DNA from: an uncultured virus (IMG/VR IMGVR_UViG_2724679570_000003)
Taxonomy: Duplodnaviria > Heunggongvirae > Uroviricota > Caudoviricetes
Virus record (IMG/VR): IMGVR_UViG_2724679570_000003
Direction: 5' to 3' (one strand)
Length of the DNA stretch: 64,000 nt
A model generated the notes under the pieces. The model was given only the letters and a program-made list of their open reading frames with translations, was not told the origin of the DNA and did no database searches. Positions 27,413 through 61,067 of the stretch are shown here, piece by piece (the stretch's first letter is position 1; each line of letters begins with the position of its first letter). The position numbers and the translations under genes were made by a program.

Positions 27413-27686
27413 AATAATTTTAAAAACCAACATGCTATAAAACTGTGATTTTACATTAATTGAAGGTGGTATAAATGGCTAAATCAAGCCATTCCTGAAG
27501 TGGAATTTTGAGAAAAATAGTAAAAATACATAATTTACTTTATATTTGATTTAGAATTGAGAAATATGAAAATTTAAGTTTTTGTATTTCTCATCTGTTT
27601 ATTGTGGACATATATGAATTTAAATGACTTAATTTTAAAATATTTTTTTTAAAACGAGGTGAAGATATGAAAGGAGATTTTTGATT

Positions 27687-29715: not shown

Positions 29716-30138
29716 ATGCCAGTTAATGATTTTATAAATTTACAACAAATTGCTACTTTTTCTGGGTGTTTATCAATAACGCTAATGATTGTGCAACTTT
29801 TGAAGGATTTGAGTTTTTTTAAACAAATGCCTACTAGATATCTAGCTGTTATTGTCGGTGTAATAAATGTAATTATAACATCTATTATGCTAAATACTTT
29901 TAGAATATCTGAATTATATTTAATGATTATAAATGGTATTTTTATAGGAATGACAGCAACAGTTACATATAATTTTAAGGGAGATAAAAACAATAAAGAA
30001 ATTCAACCTACAAATGATCTTTTTTATCATGAAGCACCACAAGATATAATAGAAAACTCAAATATAGATACTGATACAAAAGAATTTGATAATATAATAG
30101 AAGAAAATACAATAAGTGAAAACAAAATAAAAGGTTAA
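29716..30138 (+). CDS. holin
   Basis: Three hydrophobic segments, adjacent to endolysin. Confidence 0.7.
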   Translation: MPVNDFINLQQIATFSGCLSITLMIVQLLKDLSFFKQMPTRYLAVIVGVINVIITSIMLNTFRISELYLMIINGIFIGMTATVTYNFKGDKNNKEIQPTNDLFYHEAPQDIIENSNIDTDTKEFDNIIEENTISENKIKG

Positions 30139-30154
30139 TTTTAACAAAATTCTT

Positions 30155-34874: not shown

Positions 34875-34918
34875 AGAGAACGATATAAAATATTCATTTT
34901 AAATAAAGAGGTGGTATT

Positions 34919-36589: not shown

Positions 36590-36648
36590 TTTGTTATTAA
36601 TAATAATAAAACAATTTGACAATTAAGTTTTACAAGGAGGCATATAAT

Positions 36649-37665
36649 ATGACTAAAGTTAAAAGAATTAAATATTTCACCAAAGAAAAATTAGATTTGA
36701 TTAGCAAAAGTAACTGGGATAAATATGAAAAATATTTAAAAAGTAATATAATCAAAAATAAAGATGTTAAAAATACTACATATAAGGTGTATAAGAATTA
36801 TATGCAACATTTTTTAGTCTATTTAGCGGAAGAATGGGATAATGTTGATCTATATAATGAAGATTTTATGGAAAATGCAATAGACATAATGGAAGGTTTT
36901 ATATTGTTCTGTCAAGATACATTAAAAAACAATAAGAAAGTAATAAATACAAAAATATCTGCGGTTTCTAGTTTTTATTTATGGAGTATGAGAAGAAGAC
37001 ACATAGAATTTCATCCATTTGATAAAAGATTAGAAAGAATGAAAGGAGCAAGAGAAGAAAAAATTATAAATGCTTATTTTTTAACAGAAGAACAAATAAA
37101 ACAAATCAATGAAGGATTAATAGAAAATAAAGGCAACAAATTTGATTTGCTAGACTTAGTGTTATGGAATGTAGCTTTAGATAGTGCTAATAGAATTGGA
37201 GCATTGAATAGGCTAACCTTATCTCAACTAGATTTGGATAATTGTTGCTTTAAAGATATTCGTGAAAAGGAAGGGTATATAGTAGATGTAAGTTTCAATG
37301 AAAATACAAAAGAACTAATCTTAAAATGGTTAGAACATAGAAAAGAACATATGGATAATCTTGAAATAGATGCTCTGTTTATATCAAGATATGATGGAAA
37401 ATACAATAAAATGACTAAAGGAACTCTACAAAGAAGAATAAAAAAGATTGGAACTATAATAGGACTAGATGATTTTCACGCACACTGTATTCGTAAAACA
37501 AAAAGTAATAGTTTGTTAGATACTGGAATAGACCCTAGCTTAGTTAGTCGATATCTCAATCATAAAGATATTTCAACAACTTTGTCATTTTATCAAAAGC
37601 CGAAATCTTCTACAGAAATTAGGGATGAGATTAAAAATCAAATTAAAAATTTATCAAGTAAATAA
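36649..37665 (+). CDS. tyrosine recombinase (XerC/D-like)
   Basis: Catalytic R (ANRIG), K, HxxR (HCIR), H (LNH), Y (SFY); AAGGAG RBS. Confidence 0.9.
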   Translation: MTKVKRIKYFTKEKLDLISKSNWDKYEKYLKSNIIKNKDVKNTTYKVYKNYMQHFLVYLAEEWDNVDLYNEDFMENAIDIMEGFILFCQDTLKNNKKVINTKISAVSSFYLWSMRRRHIEFHPFDKRLERMKGAREEKIINAYFLTEEQIKQINEGLIENKGNKFDLLDLVLWNVALDSANRIGALNRLTLSQLDLDNCCFKDIREKEGYIVDVSFNENTKELILKWLEHRKEHMDNLEIDALFISRYDGKYNKMTKGTLQRRIKKIGTIIGLDDFHAHCIRKTKSNSLLDTGIDPSLVSRYLNHKDISTTLSFYQKPKSSTEIRDEIKNQIKNLSSK

Positions 37666-39778: not shown

Positions 39779-39807
39779 ATCTTATCAAATTATTTTATAT
39801 ATGTCAA
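39779..39807 (-). promoter_or_regulatory. promoter with TAAAATAATTT box
   Basis: TTGACA-17-TAAGAT. Confidence 0.65.
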
Positions 39808-41904: not shown

Positions 41905-42319
41905 ACAACTACTTTCCACCTTTCTTAAATTGCTTTATTTCATGTTTTAATTGTTCTATAATTTCTTTATCTGTATCATTTTTATAATTAGTTTTCTCTA
42001 TTAGTTCCATAGCTTGTACATCATTTATTTCTGATATGTGTTTTTTTATTATTTTTATGTACTTGTTTATATTCATTTAATTGCCCTCCTAGATTTTATA
42101 TAGCAGTAATAAGAGTATGCATAAACACCATTAACATACCTGTAATAATACCCATGAAGTATTCATCAAAGAATGTAGATTTGGTTGTTTTAGTAATTCT
42201 ATCACCTACAAAATAAATTATTCCAGTCATAAGTAAGCTTAATAAATATCTCATATGGATTCCTCCTTTCAGTTTTAATAAAAGTTGAGATTTATATCAT
42301 TATTATTAAATTATTTTAT

Positions 42320-42733
42320 ATTAATTTTTAATTTTATTAATACTCATATTCTCTGGTATATATTCACATACAAAATAAGGATAATAATCATCTGTATTTT
42401 CAGTTCCAATTGCTAATATTAATTTATTATTTTTTTATCATATATTTCTAAAATATCATTTGTTTCAAAGTCATCATCATTACTTTTCCTCATTTTACAT
42501 ATAACATCTATAGGTTTAAAAATGTTACTCACTTTTCTATCTGTAATTTCTAGCTCATTCATAACGCTCCTATATCCATCATCAGGGTCTTCACTAGCTA
42601 AATATTTAATACCATTTAATATAAAAATTATAAATTCTCTATCATCTATTCCACCAAGAATATCTTTATACTTTTCTGTACCATACTCGAATCCTGATAA
42701 TTTATGATTACCAACTAAATCTTTTAATTCCAT
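42320..42733 (-). pseudogene. hypothetical gene frameshifted in an A7 tract near 42435
   Basis: Coding-like LILAIGTENTDDYYPYFVCEY continues in another frame. Confidence 0.55.
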
Positions 42734-42950
42734 TTATAAAATCCTCCTTAAATTTTATATTAATATAAATTTATCATTTTAATCTAATTTTCCTTCTTTT
42801 CTTAACAAGTACCATTCGATTATAAAGCCACAAGTCATAAATCCAGTTAACCATATTATAAAATTAGGTGCTATATGATTTTTAGATATTGTAAGTCCAA
42901 ATACATTCCAAAGTATTATAAATAAAAAAATTAATAAATTCTTTTTAATT

Positions 42951-43157
42951 TTATTCATCAGCTATATAACACTCCTTTACCATATCGAACAAAAGCAAAG
43001 TACCATCTTCTTGCCAATCTCCACAATTTAAATATTTACAATAACCACATTCTTGCTTGTCCTTATTAGAATTGAATCTATACCATTTACAGGGTATTAA
43101 TTTATTATTTTTGTATATGTAACAATATTGGGTGTGTTTAGGTATCCATTTTTTCAT
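42951..43157 (-). CDS. Cys-rich small protein
   Basis: ORF track. Confidence 0.6.
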   Translation of the reverse strand: MKKWIPKHTQYCYIYKNNKLIPCKWYRFNSNKDKQECGYCKYLNCGDWQEDGTLLLFDMVKECYIADE

Positions 43158-43186
43158 TGCACGTTTTTTAATTTTTAATCACCTCC

Positions 43187-43543
43187 TTATATTTCCTCTA
43201 ACGTCACTTTCTTTAAGAATTTAAATCCCTCATGCTCTTTTTCTATTAATTCTATTAATGTATCTCCAAATAAACATCTAAGTCCTTCAAGAGAAAAATC
43301 ATTTAAGTTTAACAAATCCATATGTTTTCCATCAGAAAGAGTAACCACTACAAATTTTAATTGCTCATCATATTTGTCGTCATTAAATACTAATACATCT
43401 TTTGGGAATATATATCTTGTTAATGGATTAATACTGATATTAGTATTGCCTACCCCACCACGAATTTTATTTGCGTCAGCTCCATAAGTTAAATTAAAAC
43501 ATGTTGCTGATTGGTTTACATAAACAGAATTTTCCTTTATCAT
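43187..43543 (-). CDS. hypothetical protein
   Basis: ORF track. Confidence 0.65.
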   Translation of the reverse strand: MIKENSVYVNQSATCFNLTYGADANKIRGGVGNTNISINPLTRYIFPKDVLVFNDDKYDEQLKFVVVTLSDGKHMDLLNLNDFSLEGLRCLFGDTLIELIEKEHEGFKFLKKVTLEEI

Positions 43544-43631
43544 TTCTTTGCCCCCATTTCTGAAACCTTTCTTTTATTTTATGAGTATCATTCATCCTTT
43601 TTATAATCTCCCCTTTATCAAATTATTTTAG

Positions 43632-43724
43632 ATAAAATACTGATTTTATAACATTTTTATCCTTGAAAAATGTAGCATGAGTGAGTATTTGGAAGTATTT
43701 AAGAGCAAAATTCAGTATTTTTAT
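43632..43724. repeat. 93-bp element bounded by inverted ataaaatactga copies; related copy at 50622-50700
   Basis: Shared gattttata.catttttat.cttgaaaaa..tag...a.tgagtatt core. Confidence 0.65.
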
Positions 43725-43816
43725 TAATAATAACTATAAGCAAGAGAGAAAGATTATAAATTAAAGTATGAGGTCTTTTGTTATGATATTAAGTTTTGTG
43801 ATTTCTCTCTTGTATA

Positions 43817-44103
43817 TTATAATATTTTTGTATTGTGTAGTAAAATTACTATATTGTCGGATTTGTTATAGCCATCCAAAACTTGGGTTGTCTACGACTA
43901 TATTTAAAAACTTCTTCATTTACATCAAAATAATAAAACCCCTCTTTTTCAAAAATAGTATCACCATCAGAATATTTGAAATAATTTTGAAGACTATAAG
44001 TTTCATTTTTTATGTCCAAGCACACCAAATATTCTTTTTCATGTATCAATTTATTTTTAATATTATCCCAATTCATTATTTTCTCTCCTTCATAATAAAT
44101 TCA
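43817..44103. repeat. 287-bp duplicated gene cassette, copy 1
   Basis: Near-identical to 56428-56714. Confidence 0.9.
43849..44076 (-). CDS. hypothetical protein (paralog of 56460-56687)
   Basis: Near-identical translation. Confidence 0.75.
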   Translation of the reverse strand: MNWDNIKNKLIHEKEYLVCLDIKNETYSLQNYFKYSDGDTIFEKEGFYYFDVNEEVFKYSRRQPKFWMAITNPTI

Positions 44104-44112
44104 TTTTGTGAA

Positions 44113-44505
44113 CTAATACATCACCATCTCAAATCTATATTTTTGTTGTACATCTGGATATTTTTTATGGTCTACCTCACTTGCAAACATATTTAAAGGT
44201 CTTGCATATGGGAATTTTGAACAATCATATAGTGATTTATATATTATTAAAGCTTCATCACTATCTTTAGGATTATGATAATACTGTCCTTCTTTTTCAA
44301 ACAATGTTATTGTAGTTTCTCTTTCTGTTAACTTGACAGTGAAAATATTAACTCCAACTGTTTTAAATAAATCATTAAGTACAGAATCATAATCTCTTAA
44401 TGGTTTGCTTAAAAACATTGTTACATACGTATAATTATTTAATACCCCATCTTTAGAATGTTTAAAATGTCTATATATTGCAGGGCATACTATTTCTCTA
44501 TTCAT
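44113..44505 (-). CDS. DUF1653-like protein
   Basis: [40 protein letters not shown]. Confidence 0.75.
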
Positions 44506-44548
44506 ATTAGGATTCTCCTTTCATGTTACGATATATTTAAGATGTCAA

Positions 44549-44854
44549 TTATTTAACGGTTGTGAATTCTATTCTTGTAGCAAAATCTACACCAAAAGGT
44601 TTTTTACACTTTTCACAATCCATTGAAAACTCACCTTCCATATCTCCTACCTCTATATAATCAAGACCATCATGTTCATGCTTACAATAAGGACATTTTA
44701 TCTTCTCATTTTCTTTAAATATTATATCAAAGTCTTTATCTTTGAGGTTATTCAGTATTTCTATATCTTCTTCAGTCCACCCATTTTCTTCTAATAACTC
44801 TGCATTTAATAAATTTTCTACAGCTTCTTTTATTAATTCTACTTCTTTATTCAT
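44549..44854 (-). CDS. zinc-ribbon protein
   Basis: CPYC..CEKC. Confidence 0.65.
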   Translation of the reverse strand: MNKEVELIKEAVENLLNAELLEENGWTEEDIEILNNLKDKDFDIIFKENEKIKCPYCKHEHDGLDYIEVGDMEGEFSMDCEKCKKPFGVDFATRIEFTTVK

Positions 44855-44901
44855 TAAATTTACCCCTTTCTATATAATAATTTTATATGGTATTATACAC
44901 T

Positions 44902-45147
44902 CTACCACTTCAAAATCTTTTTTACATATGTTATTCCTGCTTTTAAAGAATCTTCAATATGGTTAAAGGATTCCTCGTAAATTGACTCTCCATCTTCCAA
45001 TCTTATTACATAAACAGTATAAGTAGTTGGTGGCATTAAACCCTTTTTTATTTCTTCTTCATATCCATTTTGATATTGATCTACAACTGTATATTCTATT
45101 GCGTATCCCTTTTTAGATATTTCTTCAATTTTTTTTAATATATCCAT
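44902..45147 (-). CDS. hypothetical protein
   Basis: GAGGAGG RBS. Confidence 0.7.
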   Translation of the reverse strand: MDILKKIEEISKKGYAIEYTVVDQYQNGYEEEIKKGLMPPTTYTVYVIRLEDGESIYEESFNHIEDSLKAGITYVKKILKW

Positions 45148-45245
45148 AATTACCTCCTCGGGTTATATTTCCTCTACTTAACCATCTAAAACCCCATCAT
45201 AATATGAAATATCATTCTTTTTCATCCATGTGCATTTTATACTTT

Positions 45246-46109
45246 TTAATCAAATTTTTTAATTAGCATTCTATACAAGCAGTCTGTTAAGAATACTAAG
45301 CTCATCATGCTTTTGTTATTTATTAAATCTAATCTGTCTCCATGAAGAACATGTCTTGTTACAAATGTAGGACTTTTTGATGTAGATTTGTATATATAGC
45401 ATGTACCTTTTTCATTAAAAAATGTTGAATATAATTTTTCTAATTCTTTACTTTCTTTATATTTAAAACAATTTTCTGATAATACTTTGGTAATATTGTT
45501 AATAATCTTCCATTCGCCTATAGGCTTGTTTGTATTGAATCCTGATTCTCTTATTTTATATTCCATTAAAGTAAATAAGTTGAGAGTAGTGGAATATATC
45601 TTGTTTTGCATAAAATTTGTTTTTATTTCTTTTATAAAATCACGAATACAATCTGTATGTTCTTCATCTATCCAATTATCCATAGCTTTAATATAATATT
45701 CTTTAATATCTGAACTATTTACAACATTATTAATGTCAATTTTATTTACATATTCCTCATAGAATTCTATAATTTGATCTTCCATCATATCATCTAAAAA
45801 ATAAAATATTGGAGGAAATACTCCTTCTGTTATAAATTTATCTGAAAATATAGGATTCATTTCTAAGAACATAGTAGCAAAATATATATTTTTCTTTTTC
45901 TTATTGCTCAATTCTTTGATAATTGGTTTTAGTTCTTTAAAAAAGAAAGCATTAATTTTATATATTTCTTTGGATATAGGTATAATAGCTTCAGAAATAA
46001 TATTTTTGAAATTTACAAGTTGACTAAATTTTTTTCCTAAATCTTTACTTATTTCTTGTAATTCACATTGTGATTTTGAAAAAACACTAACATTAGTTTC
46101 CTTATTCAT
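45246..46109 (-). CDS. hypothetical protein with C-terminal R-x4-H (HEPN-like) motif
   Basis: TRHVLHG near C-terminus; own promoter at 46179-46207. Confidence 0.55.
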   Translation of the reverse strand: MNKETNVSVFSKSQCELQEISKDLGKKFSQLVNFKNIISEAIIPISKEIYKINAFFFKELKPIIKELSNKKKKNIYFATMFLEMNPIFSDKFITEGVFPPIFYFLDDMMEDQIIEFYEEYVNKIDINNVVNSSDIKEYYIKAMDNWIDEEHTDCIRDFIKEIKTNFMQNKIYSTTLNLFTLMEYKIRESGFNTNKPIGEWKIINNITKVLSENCFKYKESKELEKLYSTFFNEKGTCYIYKSTSKSPTFVTRHVLHGDRLDLINNKSMMSLVFLTDCLYRMLIKKFD

Positions 46110-46178
46110 AAAAACAACTACCTCCTAGAATATAATATCATAAATAAAGAATAATTTTAATGAGGTTAATTTATTTTT

Positions 46179-46207
46179 ATTTTATCAAATTGTTTTATGT
46201 TTGTCAA
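46179..46207 (-). promoter_or_regulatory. promoter with TAAAACAATTT box
   Basis: TTGACA-17-TAAAAT. Confidence 0.65.
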
Positions 46208-46223
46208 ATAAATAATTAATAAG

Positions 46224-48548
46224 CTATTCTCTTATTTTCATTTTAATTATTTTATCCTTCTTTTGTCTAGTATTATATATAAAATTACCTTGGTTAGCTC
46301 TTTTCATAGTTAAATAATCTTTCCACGACTTTTCTGTGTTTGTTGCCACATCATCAAGCATGTAGTCAATTTCCTTGCCTTTTTCACTATATATAGTGAA
46401 ATTATCTTCTTTGCAATCAATAATAGCACCTATGACCTTATTATCCTCTTTTAATCTAATGCCTACTACACCTTTTGTATCTCTTGATTTTGTAGGTCTT
46501 ATTCCAGACTTTTTAGTATTAACTATTAATGCTTTGCCTTCATCAGTTAATAAGAATATATCAACATCTTCTGTAACTACTTTAATATCTATTAATGGAC
46601 TTTCTGTATTATAAGCATCCATAGGCACTTGTCTGTTAGTTTTACATTTATATTTTATTAAGCCTGTTGATCCAATATTTCCGTTTTGAAATACAGTAAG
46701 AACTTGTCCTTTATAATCTTTTGTAGTTGCAATATGTATTATTTTTTCATTTTTTTGTAAATGTTCCCCTAGCCAATTAGGAATAAATGTACCATATGCT
46801 GATGGTTGCCATTCATCTAAATCATAAGTTTTACGTATTAATACATTTCCCTTATTAGTGAATAAAAGAATGTCTGTTTTATTTGTAGTTTGGAACATTT
46901 GTATAATTTCATCTTGTTCTTTTAATTTTTGTGATTCTGAATATTTAAGATTCTTTTTTAAGTAACCATCTTTAGTTAATACTAATGTTACAGTATTGTC
47001 TTCGATAAGGTTTTCTTGAGTTATCTCTTGAATATTGTCTTTGTAAACTAATTTAGTTCTTCTTTCATCTCCATATTTATCTCTTATTTCTATAAGTTCT
47101 TGTTTTAACACTTCTAGTAATTTATTTTCATTGTTGAGTATGCTATTTAAATAAACCACTGTATTTGTTAATGTTTTATATTCATCTTCTATTGTTGCTA
47201 TTTCAAGTCCTGTTAATCTTTGTAGTTTTAATTCTAATATTGAATTTGCTTGAATTTCATCTATTTTTAATTCATTAATTAATTTATCTTTGGCTTCAAT
47301 TTTACTTTTAGAGTTTTTAATTAATTTAATAGTTTTGTCAATATCTGATATAGAAATTTTTAATCCTTCTAATATATGAAGCCTTTTTAATGATTTATCT
47401 AATTCAAATTGTGTCCTGCGTGTCAAAACTTCTTTTTGATGTTCTATGTAATACTGTAATATTTTTTTAAGATTTAAATGTTCTAATAGCTGATTTGTGC
47501 CATATATAGTAGTAAAATTAGCATTATAATTACTTTGTAAATTTGAATATTTAAATAATAAGGGCAAAATTTTATTAGGATTTGTATTTTTCTTTAATTT
47601 TATATTTATTCTCATGCCATTTCTATCAGATTCATCTACTATTTCATTTATACCAGATATTTTGGCTTTTACGGTAACTTCTTCTTTTTTATTTCCACGT
47701 ATAATGGTTTTTGTTGTATCATTAGATAACATAAAAAGATTTTCTAATAATTGTGATTTGTTAACTTGGTATGGTATTTCTGTAAAAATTATATTTTTAT
47801 TTTTATTGCTTTCTTCAATATGATATTTAGCTCTCATAATAATTTTACCATATCCATTTGTATATACATTAATCATATTTTGAGGATTTATTATTTCTCC
47901 TCCCGTAGGAAAGTCAGGTGCTTTTAAAATTTTAATTAACTCCTTAATTTCACAATTAGGATTGTTTATTTGATAAATAACAGTATTTATGGTTTCTGAT
48001 AAATTATGAGGTGGAATTGCAGTAGCAACACCAACAGCTATACCTTCAGCTCCATTTACCAAAAGGTTAGGAAATCTTGATGGAAGTATTGAAGGTTCTT
48101 TTTCTTCACCATCAAAGTTAGGAATAAAATCAACTGTATTTTTATTTATATCTTTTAATAAATCTAAGGTAATCTTTTTCATTTTTGCTTCTGTATATCT
48201 ATACGCTGCCGCTGAATCTCCATCTATACTTCCCCAGTTTCCATGTCCATCTATTAAAGGATGCCTTAAACTAAAATCTTGAGCCATTCTAACCATAGAA
48301 TCATATACTGAAGAGTCTCCATGTGGATGATATTTACCAAGAACATCTCCTACTATTCTAGCAGATTTTCTATATCCTTTTTCAGGAGTTATACCTAATT
48401 CATACATAGAAAAAATTATTCTTCTGTGTACCCATTTTAGACCATCTCTCACATCTGGTAATGCACGACCCATAATTACACTCATAGCATAATCTAGATA
48501 TTTTGTTTTCATCACTTCTGATATATTAATTTGTTTAATATTACTCAT
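46224..48548 (-). CDS. gyrA: type IIA topoisomerase subunit A
   Basis: [25 protein letters not shown] catalytic Tyr. Confidence 0.92.
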
Positions 48549-48566
48549 TGTTATGCTCCCCTTTTT

Positions 48567-50486
48567 TTATATATCTAAACTTGTTCTTATTTTAGAATTA
48601 CTTTTTATAAATTCTTTTCTTGGTGTTACTTTATCTCCCATTAACAACGTTATAGTTTTCTCTGCTTCAATAGCATCTTCCATAGTTACTTGTAATAATG
48701 TTCTAGTTTCAGGATTTAAAGTGGTTTCCCATAACTGCTCAGGGTCTTGTTCTCCTAAGCCCTTATATCGTTGTATATCTATATTTTCATCTTTGTGTTG
48801 TGAAATAAAGTTTAACTGTTCATTTTCTGAATAAGTATAATAATGTTCTTTATTTATAGTGTTTCTATATAATGGTGGTACACAAAAATATACATGACCT
48901 TTTTCAATTAGAGGTCTCATATATCTATAAATATAAGTTAACCACAATGTACCTATATGATTTCCATCACTGTCAGCATCTTGCATTAATAGTATAGAAA
49001 AATATTCTAACTTGGTAATATTAAATTCTTCCCCCATGCCAGTTCCAATTGCAGATGAAAAAATAGCTAATTCTTCACTTTGTATTACTTTTTGTTCTTT
49101 TTGCTTTTCAACATTCATTATTTTGCCTTTGGAACTCATTATAGTTTGAAATCGTCTATCTCTAGCTTGTTTTGCACTTCCACCCGCTGAATCTCCTTCA
49201 ACTACGATAAATTCTTTTTCTGTTTTATCTTTACTTGTACATAAAGCAACTTTATTAGGAGGTATTAGTGTATTAGAATTATTTTTCTTTTTCCTTGTAG
49301 TTTCTTTTGCTTTCTTTGAAGCTAATCTTGATTGTTGAGATAATAAAATTTTATTTATAATTTCTTCTGCAATTTCTTTATTTTCAATTAAAAATACTTC
49401 CATATATTCTTTTATTGTGTTTGAAATTATACTTTGCACATATGTATTTCCTAATTTGGTTTTTGTTTGACCTTCAAACTCAGGTTCGGGTATCTTAACA
49501 GATATTATAGATGTTATTCCTTCTTTTATATCTTCTTTTTGAAAATTTTCGTCTTTTGCTTTTAAATGTCCATTATTTCTAGCATATTCGTTTAATATTT
49601 TTGTTAATCCATTATAAAAACCATTAACATGATAACCACCTTCTGTAGTATTTATATTATTAACAAAAGAATATAAATTTTCATTATAATTATTAGTATA
49701 TTGAAAAGCAATTTCCATTTGGCAATTATCTAATTCTTTTTCAATATAAATTATTTTACTTTGAATAGGTGTTTTATTTTCATTAATGAATTTAACAAAT
49801 TCCTTTAAACCACCTTCATAATGATAAGTTTGCAATTGTTCTTTGTTCATTCTTTTATCTTCAAATATAATAGTAATTTTTTTATTTAAAAGAGCAAGTT
49901 CTTTTAACCTTTTTGATAATGTATTATAATTAAATTCTGTTTCACTAAATATTTCATCATCTGGTTTAAATGTTATTATAGTACCAGTTTTATCACTTTT
50001 ACCAATAATACTAACCTCATCAATTTTTTTACCTTTTGAATAATGTTGTTGATATATTTTACCATCTCTATGTACTGTTGCTTCAAATTCAATAGATAAA
50101 GCATTTACAACAGAACTTCCTACCCCATGAAGTCCTCCTGAAGTTTTGTAACCTCCTTGACCAAACTTTCCACCTGCGTGTAATGTAGCTAAAACTACTT
50201 CTAATGTAGGAATACCCATTTTAGGATGTATTCCACAAGGAATTCCTCTCCCATTATCTTTTACTGTAACTGAATTGTTTTCATTTATAATTACATTAAT
50301 AGTATCACAAGAACCATTAACAGCTTCATCAATTGCATTATCTACTATTTCATAGACACAATGATGTAATCCATTTTTACCTGTGCTTCCAATATACATC
50401 CCTGGTCTTTTTCTAACTGCTTCTAAGCCTTCTAAAACACTAATACTATTTTCATCATATGTATTATTCTTTATTTCTTCTGTCAT
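48567..50486 (-). CDS. gyrB: type IIA topoisomerase subunit B
   Basis: LEAVRKRPGMYIG, GGLHGVG, VEGDSAGG, DADSDG, RYKGLGE. Confidence 0.95.
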   Translation of the reverse strand: MTEEIKNNTYDENSISVLEGLEAVRKRPGMYIGSTGKNGLHHCVYEIVDNAIDEAVNGSCDTINVIINENNSVTVKDNGRGIPCGIHPKMGIPTLEVVLATLHAGGKFGQGGYKTSGGLHGVGSSVVNALSIEFEATVHRDGKIYQQHYSKGKKIDEVSIIGKSDKTGTIITFKPDDEIFSETEFNYNTLSKRLKELALLNKKITIIFEDKRMNKEQLQTYHYEGGLKEFVKFINENKTPIQSKIIYIEKELDNCQMEIAFQYTNNYNENLYSFVNNINTTEGGYHVNGFYNGLTKILNEYARNNGHLKAKDENFQKEDIKEGITSIISVKIPEPEFEGQTKTKLGNTYVQSIISNTIKEYMEVFLIENKEIAEEIINKILLSQQSRLASKKAKETTRKKKNNSNTLIPPNKVALCTSKDKTEKEFIVVEGDSAGGSAKQARDRRFQTIMSSKGKIMNVEKQKEQKVIQSEELAIFSSAIGTGMGEEFNITKLEYFSILLMQDADSDGNHIGTLWLTYIYRYMRPLIEKGHVYFCVPPLYRNTINKEHYYTYSENEQLNFISQHKDENIDIQRYKGLGEQDPEQLWETTLNPETRTLLQVTMEDAIEAEKTITLLMGDKVTPRKEFIKSNSKIRTSLDI

Positions 50487-50563
50487 AAAATTTTCCCCTC
50501 TCTGCTATTTATTAAATTGTTTTAAATTATAAAATATAGGAATAAGAACAAATTACAATTTTA

Positions 50564-50592
50564 ATTATATCCTCATTCCTATATTTTGTCAA
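50564..50592 (-). promoter_or_regulatory. consensus promoter for gyrBA
   Basis: TTGACA-17-TATAAT. Confidence 0.75.
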
Positions 50593-50711
50593 GTTATTTT
50601 ATTAAATTATTTTATATTGCTTTAAAATGCCGATTTTATATCATTTTTATACTTGAAAAACATAGTATAAATGAGTATTCAAGAGTAAATAAGAGATGAT
50701 TTTTGATTATT

Positions 50712-51674
50712 TTAAGACTTTAGATTAAATATCTCATTTATTACTTTATTTCTAAACTCATCACTTATTGGACTTCCAGCAGCATTAGGATGTCCTCCAC
50801 CTTCGAATATTTCAGCTACATCTTTTCCTAAGTCTACCTTGTTACCTATGTTTCTATAGCTAATTGCCTTACTCATATTTATAATAACTATAAAATCTAA
50901 TTCGGGATGTGTTTCAGATAATCTATTTCCAACTTCTGAATGATATTGCTCTCCAAATATAATACCTGCTTTATATCCTAATATATCTTTAACTATTAAT
51001 TCTTTATCTTTAGATTTTATATAATTATCAATTTCTCTTTGTTTATATTTTAATAATTGCAGATCAAAATCACTAAATCCAAAAATATCATAGTGGGTTA
51101 ATCTATATAGTATACTTTCTATAAAATCTTCTCTACCCATTATATAAAATAAATCATTCCACTGTTTAGGAATTAAATAATTTTCTTCTTTCCATTGCCA
51201 TATATCATATTTTCTAACAATTTCAACAAATGTCTCTATATTAGTATATTGATTATATACTACTGCATGTGAATCTAAGTATCTATTTTCTTTTAAATAG
51301 TCATAAAACATTCTAGTTCCAGAAGTTTTTTCTTTATCATTTAAATTTATTTGAACTTTCGCCCAATCATACTTGTTTAGTTCTAATGCTGTTGGATGAT
51401 GGTCAAGTAATTGAATATCAGGATTATAAGTTTCATCTATGTAATACTGTTTTATTATCGTAGCTATTTTTTCATTTACAGATATATCTGTTATAAATAT
51501 TTTATCATATTCATTCTTTTCTGCTCCCATATAAAATTCTTTAACCTTTTCATTAACATCATCATAATTACAATATTCAATGTTTATATTATCTTTTCCA
51601 TAAGCTAAAATTCCTAAAATAGCACAACCTATTCCATCTAAATCTGTATGAGTAAATAATTTTATTTTTTTCAT
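50712..51674 (-). CDS. DHH/DHHA1 phosphoesterase (oligoribonuclease-like)
   Basis: HTDLDG, ITD, LDHH, GGGHPNAAG. Confidence 0.88.
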   Translation of the reverse strand: MKKIKLFTHTDLDGIGCAILGILAYGKDNINIEYCNYDDVNEKVKEFYMGAEKNEYDKIFITDISVNEKIATIIKQYYIDETYNPDIQLLDHHPTALELNKYDWAKVQINLNDKEKTSGTRMFYDYLKENRYLDSHAVVYNQYTNIETFVEIVRKYDIWQWKEENYLIPKQWNDLFYIMGREDFIESILYRLTHYDIFGFSDFDLQLLKYKQREIDNYIKSKDKELIVKDILGYKAGIIFGEQYHSEVGNRLSETHPELDFIVIINMSKAISYRNIGNKVDLGKDVAEIFEGGGHPNAAGSPISDEFRNKVINEIFNLKS

Positions 51675-51698
51675 ATAGATTACCTCCATTAAATTTAT

Positions 51699-52151
51699 TT
51701 ATATTCTGTTTTTTACAATTTTAAAAGGTATATGTTTATTTTCCTTCTCATAGATGCTCAATTGTATTGTATTAACTTTAGTACCTTCTATGAAGTCCCA
51801 ATCCCTATGCACTTTACAATATTTTTCTGCTTTGTTTTTTATTGTTACAGGAAATATTTCTATAACTTTATTCTTTATTTTATAAATATAATATATATGT
51901 TCTGCATTTTGCAGTAAGTTTATCTCATCCTCTTCAAACATATAATCTCCATCTAAGTTATAAGAATTTACATCATTACTACCTCTTGATAGTCTGGTAA
52001 TTACATGTTGCCCTATTGAATTATTATTAAATTGAGATATTTCCATAAATGCTTGAGGATATATTTGCTGTTTTCTTAGTTTCTTTTTCAATATATTAAA
52101 ATTAATTTCTACATTGTCACCTATATTAAATTTTGGTTTTGTTGATTTCAT
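51699..52151 (-). CDS. hypothetical protein
   Basis: ORF track, RBS. Confidence 0.65.
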   Translation of the reverse strand: MKSTKPKFNIGDNVEINFNILKKKLRKQQIYPQAFMEISQFNNNSIGQHVITRLSRGSNDVNSYNLDGDYMFEEDEINLLQNAEHIYYIYKIKNKVIEIFPVTIKNKAEKYCKVHRDWDFIEGTKVNTIQLSIYEKENKHIPFKIVKNRI

Positions 52152-52308
52152 TATATTATCTCCTTTCTATTTCTATATAAATATTCATTTGTTTTTCATG
52201 TATATATATTTATTAAATGGTTATTATAATAAATATAAATGGAATTATCAATAAGTATATTTTCATAAGAAAAATATACAATTATTGAACATTTAAACAC
52301 ATTTTTTC

Positions 52309-52347
52309 AAAATAAGAGTGGAAATAAATTTTTCTACTCTTATTTTG
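52309..52347. terminator. hairpin/terminator
   Basis: aaaataagagt...actcttatttt. Confidence 0.55.
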
Positions 52348-52420
52348 ATTTTTTGCTATAAAAAAGTCTTTTATTATTAAATTATTTTGTATTGTTGTAA
52401 AAGCAATATTTCATTTCATT

Positions 52421-55400
52421 TTAACTTATTAATCTATTCCATTTATCAGATAATTCTTTTAAAACTTCTTTTAAAGGTTTATATGTGCTATCATTATTAC
52501 TTATATCAATATTAAAATTTTCTTTTAAAATTTGATTAGGATGACTTATATTATTTATTTTCATTTTATCTAATACTAATCTTTTACTTAGCTGTTTTTG
52601 ATATTTATTCAATATTAAAACCTCCTTAATTTTTCTCTTTTTTCTTAAGGTTTAGCTAATAACTCATTTATTCTTTTTGTTAATTTCTTTTTAATTCTAA
52701 ATTTTTTAGTTTTATCATAAATATTTATTAGATTTATAATTTGTGCTTTATATGTTAGTTCTTCTATAAAGCTTTTACATGCTTTAATACTTTCATTTGC
52801 TAATTCTATAGATATAGGTTTATTTAATAACTCTATTGTATTTTGAATGTTATTTGATTGATTTTCTTCTATGTTCTCAAAATACGTTTTATCTATGGAT
52901 GCATCACAAGGTTGTCCATCAATATACACAGTCAATTTGTCTAAAAATATATCTTCTCCCATTATATCAACTCCTTTGTTAATTCATTTTTTAATATGTT
53001 TAATTCTAATAAACCTCTAATCATTCTTATTTCATATCTGCTAGGAGATTTTATTTTATAAGAATTTCCCTCTCTACATCCGCAATTTTGGCATTTATAC
53101 TCTACATCTTTATATACTTCACCAAAAGGTTTTGCTTTTCTATATTTTGTTTTTATTATAATCTCTCCACCACAAAGTTCACAAATCTCCATTGAGTTTC
53201 CTCCTTTTTTATTTTTTAAATTATTGTTTATTATCTTCTTTAACTTTTAATTTAATCTTATATATTTCGCCATTCTTTTTCTTATATAAAGTTTTATAAC
53301 CTTTTACCTTATCACCTTTATTAAGTGCATTATATAATTTTATATTATCTATGGTTTCTTCATTTTCTCCATCTGTTACGATTATATTATTTTGCTCGGC
53401 ATGATATATACAAGAAGTAGATTTACCATTAGAAATAACTTGAGTATATGCGTTTCTATGCTCTTTATTTTCAATTTCTAAAACAACTGGTATTATATCT
53501 TTTGTTGCTTTTGAATCTTGGGTATAGTCATAAAAAGCACCTAAGGGCAATCCTAACGTTATTAATATAATTATTACACATATAAAACAAACAAAGACAT
53601 CTCCTTCTTTAATACCTTGAATTAAAGTATATATTGCATAAAAACCTATTAATACTAAAATGGATAGTATTATTGTATTGACTATATTCAATTAAAATCA
53701 CTCCTTATTATTAAATTATTGTGTATAAAATTAACTTTTTATGTTATCTATTAATAACATTTAATTCTAAAATATCTTCTAAAACACATACTTCTTGTCT
53801 AAGAGTTTTGTAGATAAGAATATTTTCCGTATCTCCTTTTTCCAAACTATCAGCTTGTTTTCTTAATATATTTATTAATCGTTTTTCTATTTGTTCTTGG
53901 GTTTTCAAACTATTACACCTCTCTTTTTATAAAGCTTTTTCCGTTACATTGTCTACATGGAAAAATAAAATTATGTTTGATATAAGGATTATTACTACTA
54001 TGTACAATTCTAATATTATACTTTAAACATTTATGATCTATTTGTTCTTCTTCAGTTAAATTAATAAATTGACATTCATTACAATTAATGTTATCTATAT
54101 TCGTCATTGTACATCTCCCTCATAGTTTTTCCTCCACCTTTTATAACAGGTAAGCCGTATTCATTTATAGATATAATATTTTGGTTTTCATTAATAACTT
54201 CTTCTTGTGATATTATACAAGCTACTTGCCAGTATGCTTGTAATAAATTATCACCGCAATCTTCAAACCATTTTACATTTTGAGTAGGTGAATTTTTATT
54301 TAAAACTAAGCCAATTGAATAACCACCAATTGTATCTAAATAATCATATATGATTTTTGAGTTTGTTTTATTCTCTATAAACCGTCTTAATCGTTCTTCT
54401 GTTAATAGCGGTATTACTAAATCTGTTTTATAATGTATTTTCCCCTCATAATCTTCAAAATGTTTTTTATTAATAGGCACACAACCTACTATATTTATAA
54501 TGCTATCTATGTCCCAATAATCTTCAATAAATAAATCTCCAAATTCAGGTTGCCACCAATTTAAGAATACTTCTTGTATTTCTTTAGGCTGTTTTAAAAA
54601 ATTCTCAGCACTTATATAATTCACACTATCCCACCTTTAATATTATTTATCATAATTAATTCTTTAGCATATTCAATATTATTATCAGTTAATGTTAAAT
54701 AAGAATTAAATACATTTTGACTTATCGATAATGATTGTAAAGTTTTTGTATAGTTTTTTTGATATTCACTCGCAGATTTTAGAGCTGCATTATAATCTTC
54801 ACCTTGCAAAAGCAAGGATTTTAAATACATTAAGTTTTCTTTATTAAATTGTTTTAATTTTAGTTGTTCCTTATTAGATATCATTTTTATTTCAGTAATT
54901 AAGTTGTCAATTTCAATAAGTTCTTTAACTTCTTTATTTGAATAATTAGATTTTAACTGTTTTGCTAGGAAATCCAAGTTTATTATAATCATCTCCTTTG
55001 AATATTTCTGATTTCATTATAGTAAAAGTTCCATTTTTATTACATCGCATATAACATACACAAGAACAATCATACTCATCTTGTTTGGCTAAATCTATAC
55101 CTAATATATATGTATCATCACTTTTGTCTAATATTTTAAATTCTTTTGTAAATTGTTTGCTATTACTTAAAAATTTATTTATTTCATCTTTGGTATTATC
55201 AGAAAATATCTTTTTAATCATATACACCCTCATCTAGTACATAATCTATTAATCCTGTTATTTCACATCTTTCAGATTTAATCCTATCAGGGTATTTACT
55301 CCAATTAATAGGTCTCAATGTTATTTGACATCCTATCTCTGAGTTAAAATCTAATTCAGTAATAGTATCAGATATTTCATTCATTATATTTTTAATCACT

Positions 55401-55480
55401 TGCTTTTCTATATGATTCTTATTATTGTTTACATCATAATCTATGACTGAACATAATTTCATCCTTTTAGTAGGCAACAT
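52421..55480 (-). other. run of small hypothetical phage ORFs (52421-52612, 52645-52962, 52962-53192, 53221-53691 membrane protein, 53913-54107, 54091-54624, 54621-54992, 54946-55233, 55214-55480)
   Basis: Tightly packed or overlapping minus-strand ORFs with RBSs. Confidence 0.7.
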
Positions 55481-55534
55481 TATTATAGTTCTCCTTTTTT
55501 TAATTATTTTATATAAAATCTAAAGTTTATATCG

Positions 55535-55846
55535 TTATTTATTTATATTTACATCATTTGAATTATCTTTTATTTTGCCAAACTCTCTATAATACTCATG
55601 ATAATTGCATTTTGGATAATTTGAACAACCTCGGAATTTACCGTACTTACCTTTTCTGGTTATCATTTTACTACCACATTCAGAACAATATTTGTTCATA
55701 TCTCCATAATCATCATATTCCTTTTCCAAATCATTCATGTTTTTTAACAAAGCTTCATATGTCCATCTAAGTATATTTTCAGATTCACCCTCATACCTAA
55801 ATTCTATTATTTCTTTTAATTCCTCCCACATTTTCTTATAATACAT
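55535..55846 (-). CDS. protein with topoisomerase-type C4 zinc ribbon
   Basis: CSECGSKMITRKGKYGKFRGCSNYPKC. Confidence 0.8.
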   Translation of the reverse strand: MYYKKMWEELKEIIEFRYEGESENILRWTYEALLKNMNDLEKEYDDYGDMNKYCSECGSKMITRKGKYGKFRGCSNYPKCNYHEYYREFGKIKDNSNDVNINK

Positions 55847-55861
55847 CTTTACCCTCCTAGA

Positions 55862-56242
55862 CTATCTATAATCAGTTTCTTCTAGTTCTTCCGCATCATA
55901 TAAACCTTGTATATAATTCTTACAATTAACTGCTTCACTTTCTTCATCGAGAATAGCCATTAAAGCACATTTATACATACAACAAAATCCATCATAGAAT
56001 TTACAATTATAACAATCTTTTTTTATATTAGGTAGCTTATTATAAATTTGATTAATACAATTTCTATAATTTTTAAGTTGAACCTTATATTTTTCACTTT
56101 TCACCACAATATTTTCAGGTACATAAGTTATTTTTACTCCATATGATTGATGCTCCAAAGTATCTTCTTTTACTTTATCAGGCTTATAAGTTTCTATTTT
56201 TAAATCTTTTTTACTTAATCCAGTTGGCAAATATCCTTTCAT
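55862..56242 (-). CDS. release-factor (RF-1 domain)-like protein lacking GGQ, plus Cys-rich tail
   Basis: DLKIETYK...GVKITYVPENIVVKSEKYKVQLKN. Confidence 0.55.
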   Translation of the reverse strand: MKGYLPTGLSKKDLKIETYKPDKVKEDTLEHQSYGVKITYVPENIVVKSEKYKVQLKNYRNCINQIYNKLPNIKKDCYNCKFYDGFCCMYKCALMAILDEESEAVNCKNYIQGLYDAEELEETDYR

Positions 56243-56427
56243 TGTTTTTTATCCCTCCTCTATATTAATCTAATTTTTCTTAATATTTTACCTAAGAATG
56301 TTAGGTTCTCTTTAAAGGCTATTTTACAATACCAACATTCCCATTCTTTATTTCCATCTACATATTCAGTTTCTATCATATTTTGTTTGCATAGTGGACA
56401 TTTTTTTAGCATAGTTATATTTTCTCC

Positions 56428-56714
56428 TTATAATATTTTTGTATTGTGTAGTAAAATTATTATATTGTCGGATTTGTTATAGCCATCCAAAACTTGGGTT
56501 GTCTATAACTATATTTAAAAACATCTTCATTTACATCAAAATAATAAAACCCCTCTTTTTCAAAAATAATATCACCATCAGCATATTTAAAATAATTTTG
56601 AAGACTATAAGTTTCATTTTTTATGTCTAAACACACTAAATATTCCTTTTCATGTATCAATTTATTTTTAATATTGTCCCATTTCATTATTCTCACTCCT
56701 TCGTAATAAATTCA
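56428..56714. repeat. 287-bp duplicated gene cassette, copy 2 (CDS 56460-56687)
   Basis: Near-identical to 43817-44103. Confidence 0.9.
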
Positions 56715-56743
56715 AATTGTAATTCATTTGATCAACCATACAT

Positions 56744-59700
56744 TTAGTTTAATTTAACTACACAATCAACATATCTACCTAAATCTCTATTTACTAATGA
56801 TTCAATGTCTACAAAAGTTTCTTGTAGATAATTAATATCTGGTTTTCCTACTAATTGTTTATTATCTATTCTTACTATCTCTAAAAAGAACATTTTTCCT
56901 TTTATGTATTTAAAAATAATTTTATCCCCTTTATTTAGTTTTAAAAAATCTTCTTTAGTTTTTAATTCTTCAATATTTATCATTTATTTCTCCTCTCTTA
57001 GAATAGTTAAATCATTAGAATATATTAGATATCTCTTTCTCTTTAATTTCATCATAATTTTTAAATTGCTTGATTGAATCTATTAAAAGTTCCTTACTAT
57101 AAAATTCTTGAAGAATTAGAAGTAACATATCTAAACTTATATGTCTCATTATACCCTTACCAAAATCTATAGTTAGTATTTTATTTCGTTCATATTCTTT
57201 TCCTTGTGGAGTTGATTCTGTTAATGCAAATGGTGTACTGCTATAAAGATTATTAATAATAAATTGGTCTTTAGATGCTCTTTTTATCAAATCTTCTATT
57301 TTCATAAGCTTCCTCCTTTTTAAAATTAAATTATCAATTTTCAATCACTTCTTTTACTTGAAAAACATAAATCATATCTATGTTTTTTTCATCTGCAAGA
57401 TATTCATGTTGAGGATTTTGGACACCTATATAACTCCCCCATTTATGCCAACGCCAACCATATTCATCTTGACTACTTTTAAATATTGGTGTCATTACAG
57501 CTATATATTTCTTTTTTTTATATTTTTCGTATTCTTGTATTTCTTTATTGCAATAATCTAATACCTGTGAAGCATTATCACATACTCCATAATCAAATTC
57601 ATTGTACTCATTTACAAATTTATAATCTGTCAAATCTTGCAAACTATGTTTCCAATTTAAATTAGATATATAGATATTGTTTATATCTTTCATAGTATCT
57701 TTTATTGTTTTAATAGTCTTTTCTTGACCTAATTCTTTTAGCCATAATTCATAAGGGCTAAATCGGTCATTTATGTTTTTTAATTTTACTTTTTCCCAAT
57801 TTATATTAGGTTCAGAATTTTTTAATTCCTCACATAAATCATTGTGTTTCTTTATTTTCTCTTCGTTATTTATTAATTTAACTAATTTAATCATTTTACC
57901 CTCCAATAAATTTATTATATCTTTGAATTGTTAACTAGAAATTCTTTAATATAACCTTAATCGTCAAATCCTCCATCATGTGTACCTATATAGAAATGTT
58001 CTTCATAACATTTACTACAAGCTATATGTTTAAGATGACAATTATTACTACATTCCTTACTCTTGTCACATTGTATACAACATTTGTTACACCCAGAGGT
58101 CAACAAATTACCCTCGTTTAATTTCCACATAAAATCCCCTTCCTTCAATTACGATAAATCATTTATTTTATTAAATTATTCTTTTTCATTTTAGAAACAT
58201 ATAATGCAGGATAAATATAAGATAAAGTATGTGCTGGTGTAAACTCTTGAATACTCCAATTTTTATACATGTTTTCAAGAATTTTATTAACTTCCTCATC
58301 TACTTCTTTAATAATATCTTCCTTACTTATCATTTTTTGCACCTCCAATACAATAGTTCAGTATTGTAATTACTTTCATCTGGGGTGTCCTTCTTAATAT
58401 AATAATTATTATATTTTATATTGATTTGATATTTATCCTTCAAATATTTGATTATAATATTAAACTTTCTATTTTTTTGTAGCTTATCTTCATTTAATTT
58501 TACTAAAAATTCGTCTAATATAAAATGCGTTCTATTAATACCTGTTATAATTTTTTGTTCATTATTTATGTTGTATTCTAAAACCGTTTCAAATATTTTA
58601 TATATTAATTTATCCATTTTTTGAAATAATTCAATTAATAAATTTTGTATTAATTCATAACAATAATCTATTTCTTCTTGTCTATCTTTTGGAGTATCTT
58701 CATGGCGAAAAGTTGGCATATGTTTATTTAAATAATCTTTAGTTAAAGATTGAAATAATTTTATTATTGCTTCATAAGTATCAAAATCTGAGAATTTAGG
58801 AAGTATTAATTCTTTTATATAGCCTCTAAAAGCCATGTGACAATTATATTTTACAATGTTGTCGTCTCCTCCTAAATAATAATATATATTTTGAAAATAT
58901 AGATACACTCTACAACCTAATGTATCAACTTCCCATTTCTTTTCATTATTTGTATTGATATATGTTTCACCCCAATTTACATCTTTAATAAGGTTTGGCA
59001 AATCAAAAGAATTATCAACTATCATTTTTGATATTAAATATATTCTTTCAATCCAATCATCAGTTAAAATTATTTCATTATTTTTATTTATTATTAAAAA
59101 TTCATTTTCCAAATCATCTTGTTTATTTTTTCTTTCTCTTTCTTTTATTGCTTTTATACGCTTTTCTTCTGCAATCTGTTTTTGCCTTTCGATTTCTTGT
59201 TGTTTTCTTAATTCTTCTGCTTTTTTACGTTCTTCTTCTTTTTGTTTTTCTTTTGCTTCTCTTAACATTGATCTCAACATATCTGTATCTGAATGCCCAC
59301 AAAAACTTGATAAAGCTGTTTCATATTGTAAAATTTCTTTTTCTGTTCTACAATTTTTATATTTGCCACCCAAATAAGGATTCTCCATTGTTGTAAAAGA
59401 ATCAGAAAGTAAATGGTCATAATACAAAAAAGTATTTGGATTAGTGCAATCATATACTGTAACATTAAAAAAATCATCTTGAATTTTCTTAATCATTTTA
59501 CTATTATATTCATCTCTTGCAATGCTTGACTCTAAAGCCTTTTCTATTTCTTCTATTGTCATCTTTTACTCACTCCTATCGTTAAATTATTTTACGTTAT
59601 AAAAGAATGGTTTTATTAACTTATTTATGTAATTAATCTTCCTTGATATACCATTCTCCTTCAGCTATTAAATAAGGGGTTATACTATCTTCTTCAGCGA

Positions 59701-60603: not shown

Positions 60604-60628
60604 ATTTTCTCTCTCCTTTCATGATTCT

Positions 60629-60657
60629 ATATTACCAAATTATTTTATATTAGTCAA
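60629..60657 (-). promoter_or_regulatory. promoter with TAAAATAATTT box
   Basis: TTGACT-17-TAATAT. Confidence 0.65.
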
Positions 60658-60745
60658 GCTTTAAATAATGTTTTTAAAAATTATTGCATATAAGAATAGC
60701 TCCCTGAAAATCAAGAAGCTATTAATTGATGTCTATTTATTTAAT

Positions 60746-61048: not shown

Positions 61049-61067
61049 TTAATTTTCCTCCTGCTAT

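Follow-up and report, generated by a model that had tools for sequence, protein, structure and literature searches.

Two kinds of short, dispersed intergenic element come closest to the one described here. Promoter-early stem-loops (PeSLs) are mobile regulatory cassettes of T4-type phages (PMC2839356, PMC4122927), and the stoperators of mycobacteriophage L5 and the cluster A phages are more than 20 short repressor sites spread across the genome, in promoters and short intergenic spaces, which the accessible part of the source describes as proposed to stop both the initiation and the elongation of transcription (PMC9283540). In a 64,000-nt stretch of DNA from an uncultured virus of the Caudoviricetes (IMG/VR record IMGVR_UViG_2724679570_000003; hereafter the window), an 18-bp palindrome, ATAAAA-N6-TTTTAT, recurs between genes, commonly close to a sense-oriented box, and a first-pass annotation had read this arrangement as a possible integron-like cassette array. 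As far as the available text on PeSLs allows the comparison, the module of box and palindrome is like them in that about 50 short composite intergenic motifs occur per phage genome, the motifs run from the upstream stop codon to the ribosome-binding site (RBS) of the next gene, the palindromic part is variably placed relative to the putative promoter part, they are concentrated beside small genes of unknown function, and they mark places where close relatives differ by insertion, deletion or replacement. As in the part of the stoperator literature at hand, many copies of a short site are dispersed over the short intergenic spaces and promoters of a phage genome. The element resembles PeSLs and stoperators in role, and differs from both in structure.

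The window has a G+C content of 25%. A megablast search against a public phage collection gave no near match to it, and among named phages the nearest are large ones of Clostridioides, with 67% DNA identity across one gene. Five close relatives of 130–200 kb are present in IMG/VR, and against the window they show blocks of 99–100% identity with unrelated or diverged stretches in between; relative G004 is a complete genome of 199,910 bp with direct terminal repeats, and the G001 and G003 records are one and the same contig. Genes were called crudely by us, 88 in the window and 280 in G004, and all gene distances given here depend on these calls, by which the intergenic DNA of the window comes to 8,504 nt.

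The palindrome is real, is constrained in the length of its spacer and is specific to this phage lineage. Over the whole window five exact copies are observed against 0.32 expected, a number reached in 0 of 100 shuffles, and the excess of copies with at most one mismatch is weak (17 against 9.7 expected; 17 reached in 4 of 100 shuffles). Within the intergenic DNA of the window there are eight sites with a spacer of 6 against 1.6 expected (eight reached in 0 of 200 shuffles), while 13 other spacer lengths give 0–4 sites against ~1.6 expected; a spacer of 3 is also enriched (9 against 1.8 expected), because the neighbouring box reads as a palindrome with that spacer. The exact intergenic sites of G004 number 18 at spacer 6 and 0–1 at each of 14 other spacers, and its coding DNA, five times the intergenic amount, holds only three exact spacer-6 sites; with one mismatch, the intergenic counts are 48 at spacer 6, 32 at spacer 3 (the box) and 5–21 at other spacers. 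With 53 intergenic sites of at most one mismatch, G004 thus carries many copies of one short site across its genome. The records of six relatives hold 13–22 exact copies each against 0–2 of the pattern read backwards (22 and 0 in G004), whereas five clostridial-type bacterial genomes of 2.6–4.8 Mb hold 9–31 copies against 14–25 for the backward control, which is no enrichment, and in Clostridioides phage AR1086-1 an early region of 41 kb, which has 26% G+C and shares the small-gene layout, contains no exact copy at any spacer length.

The first-pass annotation had cautioned that the AT-rich background called for a significance test; the excess held against shuffled intergenic DNA, and an artefact of AT-rich composition is ruled out by the shuffles, the backward pattern, the other spacer lengths, the bacterial genomes and the C. 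difficile phage of equal G+C. The recurrence it described was confirmed, as was the location of the sites at gene boundaries, which is borne out by their intergenic concentration in both the window and G004. A scan of IMG/VR with a composite pattern returned 19 stretches, mostly single matches in unrelated contigs, and was not informative; a paper on group III Clostridium genomes does not mention such a motif in the part of its text available.

The anatomy of the site was derived from 52 intergenic G004 sites aligned along the direction of transcription. Positions T2, A3–A5, T14–T16 and A17 are nearly or fully invariant, position 7 favours T and position 12 favours A, and a symmetric pair is kept outside the arms, with T at −3 (37 of 52) and A at +22 (41 of 52). 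Pairs of positions next to or inside the arms, and those outside them, match no more often than shuffled columns or chance would give, covariation is absent, and the mean energy of the 6-bp hairpin is −0.1 kcal/mol as RNA and +0.17 as DNA. As the sequence is conserved with twofold symmetry and the fold is not, recognition in duplex DNA is indicated, and the palindrome looks like a dyad site. An upstream stop codon lies within 10 nt of the palindrome in 21 of the 52 sites, the palindrome sometimes itself providing the TAA, and a downstream start lies within 10 nt in only three.

The G+C-rich stem of an intrinsic terminator is missing, since the arms are AT-only, and the palindrome as a hairpin, terminator or processing site is rejected on its energy and on the absent covariation. 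The structural differences from the described systems follow the same lines. A repeated intergenic module that coincides with junctions is present, probably with a promoter part, but a stable terminating stem-loop is not; PeSL stems, in the text accessible, are stable, often G/C-rich and act as terminators, whereas here hexamer arms of A and T with an energy near zero are conserved as sequence, in a phage of Gram-positive anaerobe type that is not T4-like. The L5 stoperators are asymmetric 13-mers, bound by a monomer and active in one orientation according to the available part of PMC9283540, in contrast to the dyad here, and no repressor is linked to the palindrome.

The palindromes also predict where close relatives differ. 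When G004 was compared with G001, with junctions defined by blocks of at least 90% identity, 44 junctions were found, 34 of them in or next to intergenic gaps, which make up 18% of the genome. Of the 52 gaps with a palindrome, 16 contain a junction, about three times the rate in the remaining gaps (18 of 173; odds ratio 3.8, p = 0.0007), and in the window junctions occupy 6 of 8 palindrome gaps against 21 of 57 other gaps (p = 0.048). The nearest non-palindromic gaps hold a junction in 9 of 83 cases, and a shuffle of labels within runs of ten gaps gave 8.2 ± 2.1 expected against 16 observed (p = 0.0004), pointing to a local effect. The box is no predictor (19 of 112 gaps with a box, 15 of 113 without), and in a logistic model the palindrome alone counts (permutation p = 0.002), its effect being independent of the box and of gap length. 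For stoperators, no link to mosaic junctions is reported in the accessible part of PMC9283540.

The position of these junctions was resolved by taking six sequences together and counting distinct variant pairs that keep the flank on one side and have another on the opposite side. Of 76 such pairs, 15 start to diverge no more than 1 nt from the edge of the palindrome; the corresponding counts are 6 of 88 for box edges and 0 of 105 for anchors displaced by 25 or 40 nt. Ten of the 15 have their downstream side replaced, the orientation being a guess from A over T. Three blocks of 99.3–99.9% identity have palindromes at both ends. All five relatives lose homology to the window at the right edge of the 58154..58171 palindrome, with four different segments downstream. 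Homology also breaks at either edge of the palindrome at 53725..53742, depending on the relative, 5 nt past the one at 34885..34902, and at box edges 42323, 43620 and 50512. The proposal that the sites mediate the gain, loss and shuffling of accessory genes is thus partly supported, as gene replacement among relatives is tied to the palindromes but reshuffling between unlike sites is not seen, and breakpoints often map to the edge of the palindrome but not to its spacer.

Not one of the 16 palindrome-gap junctions between G004 and G001 falls in a spacer. All 52 spacers within G004 differ, and among 168 distinct allele pairs sharing a flank plus the adjoining arm none has an exchanged spacer, in a test where exchange between sites of identical spacer would leave no hybrid trace. 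A crossover between unlike palindromes would be equally likely in the near or the far arm, so that hybrid spacers should be about as frequent as exact-edge junctions; as 0 were seen against 15, the strict PeSL mechanism is rejected here and the palindrome is concluded to be inherited whole, unlike PeSLs, for which the available text describes exchange between different copies. Whole inheritance fits exchange at the same joint between two genomes, a process acting on the site's outer border, or selection, and it disagrees with an integron-like reshuffling of cassettes between unlike sites.

There is a likeness to integrons in that a recombination-associated element stands at the 3' end of each unit, in one orientation, beside cargo that differs between relatives. 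An attC site is a long, imperfect inverted repeat whose single strand forms a stable hairpin, whereas the site here has 18 bp, a hairpin energy of about zero and no pairing beyond its arms. Integron cassettes are promoterless, whereas many genes here have their own sense-oriented box 16–36 nt upstream, a candidate promoter. The only recombinase in the window, an Xer-like tyrosine recombinase at 36616..37665 on the plus strand, is not an integron integrase: its best matches reach at most 88 bits against cut-offs of 220–335, and it has no match at all to the integron-integrase model TIGR02249, on which three G004 recombinases score 112, 78 and 33 bits against a cut-off of 265. Whereas an integron integrase is adjacent to its array and diverges from it, this enzyme is convergent with the minus-strand array and ends ~4.6 kb before the first site of the latter. 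Together with the distinct spacers and the 18 of 34 intergenic junctions in palindrome-free gaps, this leaves the integron-like label unsupported. The geometry of a tyrosine-recombinase core site, which had also been invoked, stands in part: inverted arms surround a spacer fixed at 6 bp, where 6–8 bp are required, but strand exchange at the spacer borders, which would leave hybrid sites, is not seen among the 168 allele pairs.

The box that accompanies the palindrome reads AAAAYAATTT on the sense strand, within a wider consensus of ~20 nt. Its 16-nt form, TAAAAYAATTTRRTAA, has 36 copies in G004, all oriented with local transcription (backward control 6), and 24–47 copies in each of the other relatives, against 0, 2, 0 and 2 copies in four bacterial genomes totalling 14 Mb. 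G004 has 137 box copies within 300 nt upstream of a same-strand gene start, most of them 16–36 nt from it; a translation signal at fixed distance from the RBS is rejected, as the distance to the Shine-Dalgarno sequence spreads over 1–30 nt. In 11 of the 137 the box forms the 17-nt spacer of a perfect sigma-A-type promoter (TTGAC(A/T), N5, box, G(A/G), TAAtAT), and the other 126 are without a −35 hexamer, whereas the promoter of PeSLs is described in the text available as a full sigma-70 consensus. Three such promoters are predicted in the minus-strand half of the window, at 39779..39807 (minus; TTGACA, N5, box, GA, TAAGAT), 46179-46207 and 60629-60657. A literature search for the box sequence yielded unrelated uses only in the excerpts returned.

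In 39 of the 52 G004 sites a box lies within 45 nt of the palindrome, with preferred box starts at +27 (8), +21 (6) and −10 (5), and the usual order in a gap is stop codon, palindrome, box, RBS and start. A classical terminator is predicted in only 21 of 185 same-strand gaps, and its order relative to the box is ambiguous, as the terminator comes first in 12 of these gaps and after the box in 9. At 52152-52420 (minus) a strong terminator-like hairpin comes no more than ~45 nt after a box, and no open reading frame (ORF) separates the two, an arrangement that may represent a short non-coding transcript or an attenuator.

A Pfam scan of 193 G004 proteins of at least 70 residues (E ≤ 1e-5) found no sigma factor or polymerase that might read these signals. 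Outside the scanned set and beyond the span of the window, a 920-residue ORF (G004 59865-62627; L116:866-3625) is a homologue of SPbeta YonO, with a pairwise E of 2e-11 and DTDSD aligned with the DNDGD of YonO; an HU-like protein 52% identical to SPbeta YonN is encoded 2.6 kb downstream, nearby as in SPbeta. Alleles at the same locus in G001 (L125, minus, 1022 aa) and G006 (L124, minus, 945 aa) are 36% (38% in the genome search) and 23% identical, and all keep DxDxD. The YonO-like alleles are thus only 23–38% identical to each other though the genomes are ~99% identical elsewhere, and the genes lie directly downstream of one palindrome joint. The densities of box and palindrome are the same in G001, G004 and G006 despite this divergence, so the box is not assigned to the YonO-like enzyme, and its candidacy as a promoter of that polymerase is weakened. 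A phage with a 33%-identical YonO homologue shows no box enrichment, and the SPbeta yonO-yonK region contains neither box nor palindrome. The promoter of YonO-type polymerases was still undetermined in 2017 according to the accessible text of PMC5467207, and no later work on YonO promoters appeared among the records listed by literature searches.

In our view the palindrome is best explained, at a probability of roughly 0.45, as a boundary or operator element, bound by a protein, at the close of each gene unit; it would also serve, or be preserved, as the fixed joint at which modules are exchanged. The 18-bp dyad would be recognised in the double helix, most likely by a dimeric protein peculiar to this phage lineage, and would sit at the 3' end of units composed of the promoter-like box, RBS, one or more ORFs, stop codon and palindrome. 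There it would most likely serve as an operator or as a boundary to transcription, in the manner of the dispersed L5 stoperators. Since each unit would end in the same short element and begin after one, recombination between relatives would exchange whole units while the palindrome stays intact as the joint. We infer protein binding, the limiting or control of transcription and the way in which exchange is catalysed from the pattern of conservation and junctions. Plasmid prophage P1 likewise has many C1 operators scattered over its genome, and late promoters with only a −10 plus an upstream palindrome; however, the C1 operators are asymmetric and the late-promoter palindrome is at a fixed position, unlike the palindrome here.

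Several observations weigh against this explanation. No binding protein has been identified for the palindrome, and no regulator gene is preceded by it in a manner suggesting autoregulation. Mismatches are somewhat asymmetric, since the two outer and inner positions hold 21 in the upstream arm but 8 in the downstream one, which a pure homodimer site does not predict. Between G004 and G001, 36 of 52 palindrome gaps are without a junction and, as mentioned, more than half of the intergenic junctions sit in palindrome-free gaps. Selection for intact units could account for junctions near the palindrome, although not for the unexchanged spacers. The promoter and boundary activities are deduced from sequence, and every gene coordinate depends on our own crude ORF calls.

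A second explanation shares the joint but makes it an active one: the palindromes would be dedicated site-specific joints at which a phage enzyme, for example one of the Xer-like recombinases or a nuclease cutting at the edge, recombines only sites of the same spacer. About 50 such 'heterospecific' joints with identical arms and unique spacers would allow in-register swaps of modules between co-infecting relatives, without the phage scrambling or deleting its own genes. The inverted arms around a fixed 6-bp spacer, the 52 distinct spacers, the absence of exchanged ones and the sharp peak of junctions at the exact edge are what this would produce, as are the four cargo segments that follow one joint (58154) with gene order preserved and the 99.3–99.9% blocks bounded at both ends by palindromes; the box, longer and more abundant, predicts no junctions, and enzymes are at hand, with at least three Xer-like recombinases in G004 and one more in the window. 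On the other side, no recombinase is tied to the palindromes, chance, too, would give about 52 distinct spacers, the discrete spacing of palindrome and box suggests a role in transcription, four-fifths of the variant pairs (61 of 76) are not at the exact edge, and the model leaves unexplained the first arrival of new cargo next to a particular spacer. Known tyrosine-recombinase sites have longer arms, and the 6–7 bp conserved in each arm here are short by that measure. Dedicated joints are considered unlikely.

The palindrome might instead belong to the promoter, as a polymerase contact or a curved-DNA element similar to an UP element or a substitute for the −35, read by host sigma-A or the YonO-like polymerase. 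This would accommodate the many boxes without a −35, the two commonest offsets (+27 and +21), which put the palindrome directly upstream of the box, the TAAAAT in the arms, which resembles a −10 hexamer, and the presence in the lineage of a polymerase whose type still had no determined promoter in 2017. Yet the placement varies, with the palindrome 2, 5 or 8 nt upstream of the box or else downstream of it, 13 of 52 sites are without a box within 45 nt, the position of the palindrome is linked to the preceding stop codon rather than to the start that follows, and motif density is unchanged across the divergent YonO-like alleles. A promoter element is considered improbable. Very improbable indeed is a function in RNA, where a weak hairpin would terminate, pause or mark the upstream transcript for processing; proximity to the stop codon in 21 of 52 sites and the scarcity of predicted classical terminators would suit it, but a hairpin energy of about zero, the lack of covariation or extended pairing, arms kept as sequence and symmetric flank positions outside any stem do not.

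The individual sites of the window vary in quality. The 12 that had been listed as exact or near-exact comprise three exact copies, five with one mismatch and two with two mismatches, and the remaining two do not hold up: at 52357..52374 the arms are 5 nt apart instead of 6, and 43707..43724 does not match the pattern but repeats the 43632 site imperfectly in inverted orientation. The claim that the sites usually lie after a stop codon and before the box and RBS applies, in the minus-strand sense, to those at 43632, 50622, 52397, 53725, 55513 and 59599, whereas the box comes first at 42278 and 58154. The palindrome at 42278..42295 has one mismatch, with perfect arms in relatives, and lies downstream of a box (42308-42317) and upstream of the RBS of gene 42096-42254 (minus); homology to four relatives starts at the box, 23–27 nt upstream. 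A weak copy with two mismatches at 42765..42782 overlaps the stop codon of gene 42779-42958 (minus); relatives have ATAAAATGATAAATTTAT here, and homology to L002, L004 and L005 stops ~12 nt downstream. The exact palindrome at 43632..43649 is 2 nt upstream, in the sense direction, of the box AAAATAATTT (43620..43629, minus), one example of the sense-oriented boxes, and homology to five relatives stops at the 3' edge of this box. Between the nrnB-like gene and gyrB, the palindrome at 50622..50639 (one mismatch) is followed 8 nt downstream by a box (50604-50613) and then a consensus sigma-A promoter.

Intergenic regions 43544-43848 and 50487-50711 have in common a ~75-nt segment that ends in their respective palindromes, and in the former the imperfect inverted copy at 43707 lies 57 nt away from the palindrome. 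In place of the gyrB-gyrA pair (window 46224-50486), G002 and G004 carry a type II topoisomerase pair that is more distant (compared with L002 and L003), and this junction lies 2 nt past a box at 50514-50523.

Farther along the minus-strand half, the degenerate palindrome at 52397..52414 has two mismatches, reduced to one in L001, L004 and L005, and a box 8 nt downstream (52379-52388). The exact copy at 53725..53742, with a box at 53713-53722, is 1 nt past the upstream stop codon and has both sides replaced in different relatives: G004 differs upstream, and L004, L005 and G001 differ directly downstream. At 55513..55530 (one mismatch) the palindrome is 4 nt past the upstream stop codon and 2 nt before its box (55501-55510), and the window and G005 diverge 2 nt from the edge. 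The left arm of the palindrome at 58154..58171, which has one mismatch and was absent from the earlier list, abuts a box (58173-58182), and its edge is where the four different gene segments begin. The exact copy at 59599..59616, 16 nt past the upstream stop codon and 5 nt before its box (59584-59593), is kept in all five relatives, with no junction seen.

Three further sites, each with one mismatch, lie in the plus-strand part of the window. The palindrome at 27437..27454, in the late region, stands between a box (27411-27420) and an RBS. That at 30127..30144, also new to the list, overlaps the end of gene 29716-30138 (plus), is followed by a terminator-like hairpin and diverges from G002 5 nt from the edge. 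At 34885..34902 the palindrome is 10 nt past the upstream stop codon and directly before the RBS of gene 34919-35857 (plus); it is G004 whose homology stops 5 nt downstream. Exact palindromes, likewise absent from the earlier list, also occur within tail-gene ORFs at 15504-15521 and 33709-33726, where they are kept in relatives and could be either chance or functional.

The strand composition of the window switches at ~38 kb. Up to this point plus-strand ORFs encode a tape-measure protein, tail proteins, an endolysin and the Xer-like recombinase, and from 38.1 kb to the end minus-strand ORFs encode gyrA, gyrB, a DHH/NrnB-like protein, thymidine kinase and many small genes; in a PHROGs scan of 47 small or unannotated window proteins, most from 42–60 kb were without a family match. 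One small gene of unassigned function is duplicated at 43852-44076 and 56463-56696 (both minus), ~93% identical over ~290 nt including ~45 nt past the stop codon, with a further non-syntenic, inverted copy in G001; the ends of the copies are not at palindromes. The tape-measure gene (5830-14699) appears in three ORFs (5830-7401, 7650-8276 and 9552-14699), and an HNH-repeat homing-endonuclease ORF at 8396-9358, which G004 is without, occupies one of the gaps; the split could be due to an intron or other intervening element, and Rfam at its gathering threshold finds no intron in this region. Four TnpB (IS200/IS605 OrfB, Cas12f-like) genes or fragments lie at 108-392, 17089-18480, 38613-39749 and 63356-64000, and a RAGATH-18 RNA (38489-38557, minus, 65.7 bits) is directly downstream of the copy at 38613-39749. 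This RNA is the sole match of the Rfam scan, which returned none at the palindromes.

The boundaries of phage mosaics are a matter of debate, in which random joining followed by selection is set against sequences that direct exchange. In this lineage one short, recognisable motif marks the ends of gene units in a phage of ~200 kb and predicts where close relatives differ, whereas a longer and more abundant box does not, making the question testable in a second phage group, unrelated to the T4-like phages. The lineage has a compact set of signals for such work, consisting of the palindrome, the sense-oriented box and the full sigma-A promoters built around it, together with a YonO-like RNA polymerase. 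Should the palindromes prove to be a dedicated, spacer-specific recombination system, this would be the most interesting outcome, akin to the recombinase-mediated cassette exchange that has been engineered.

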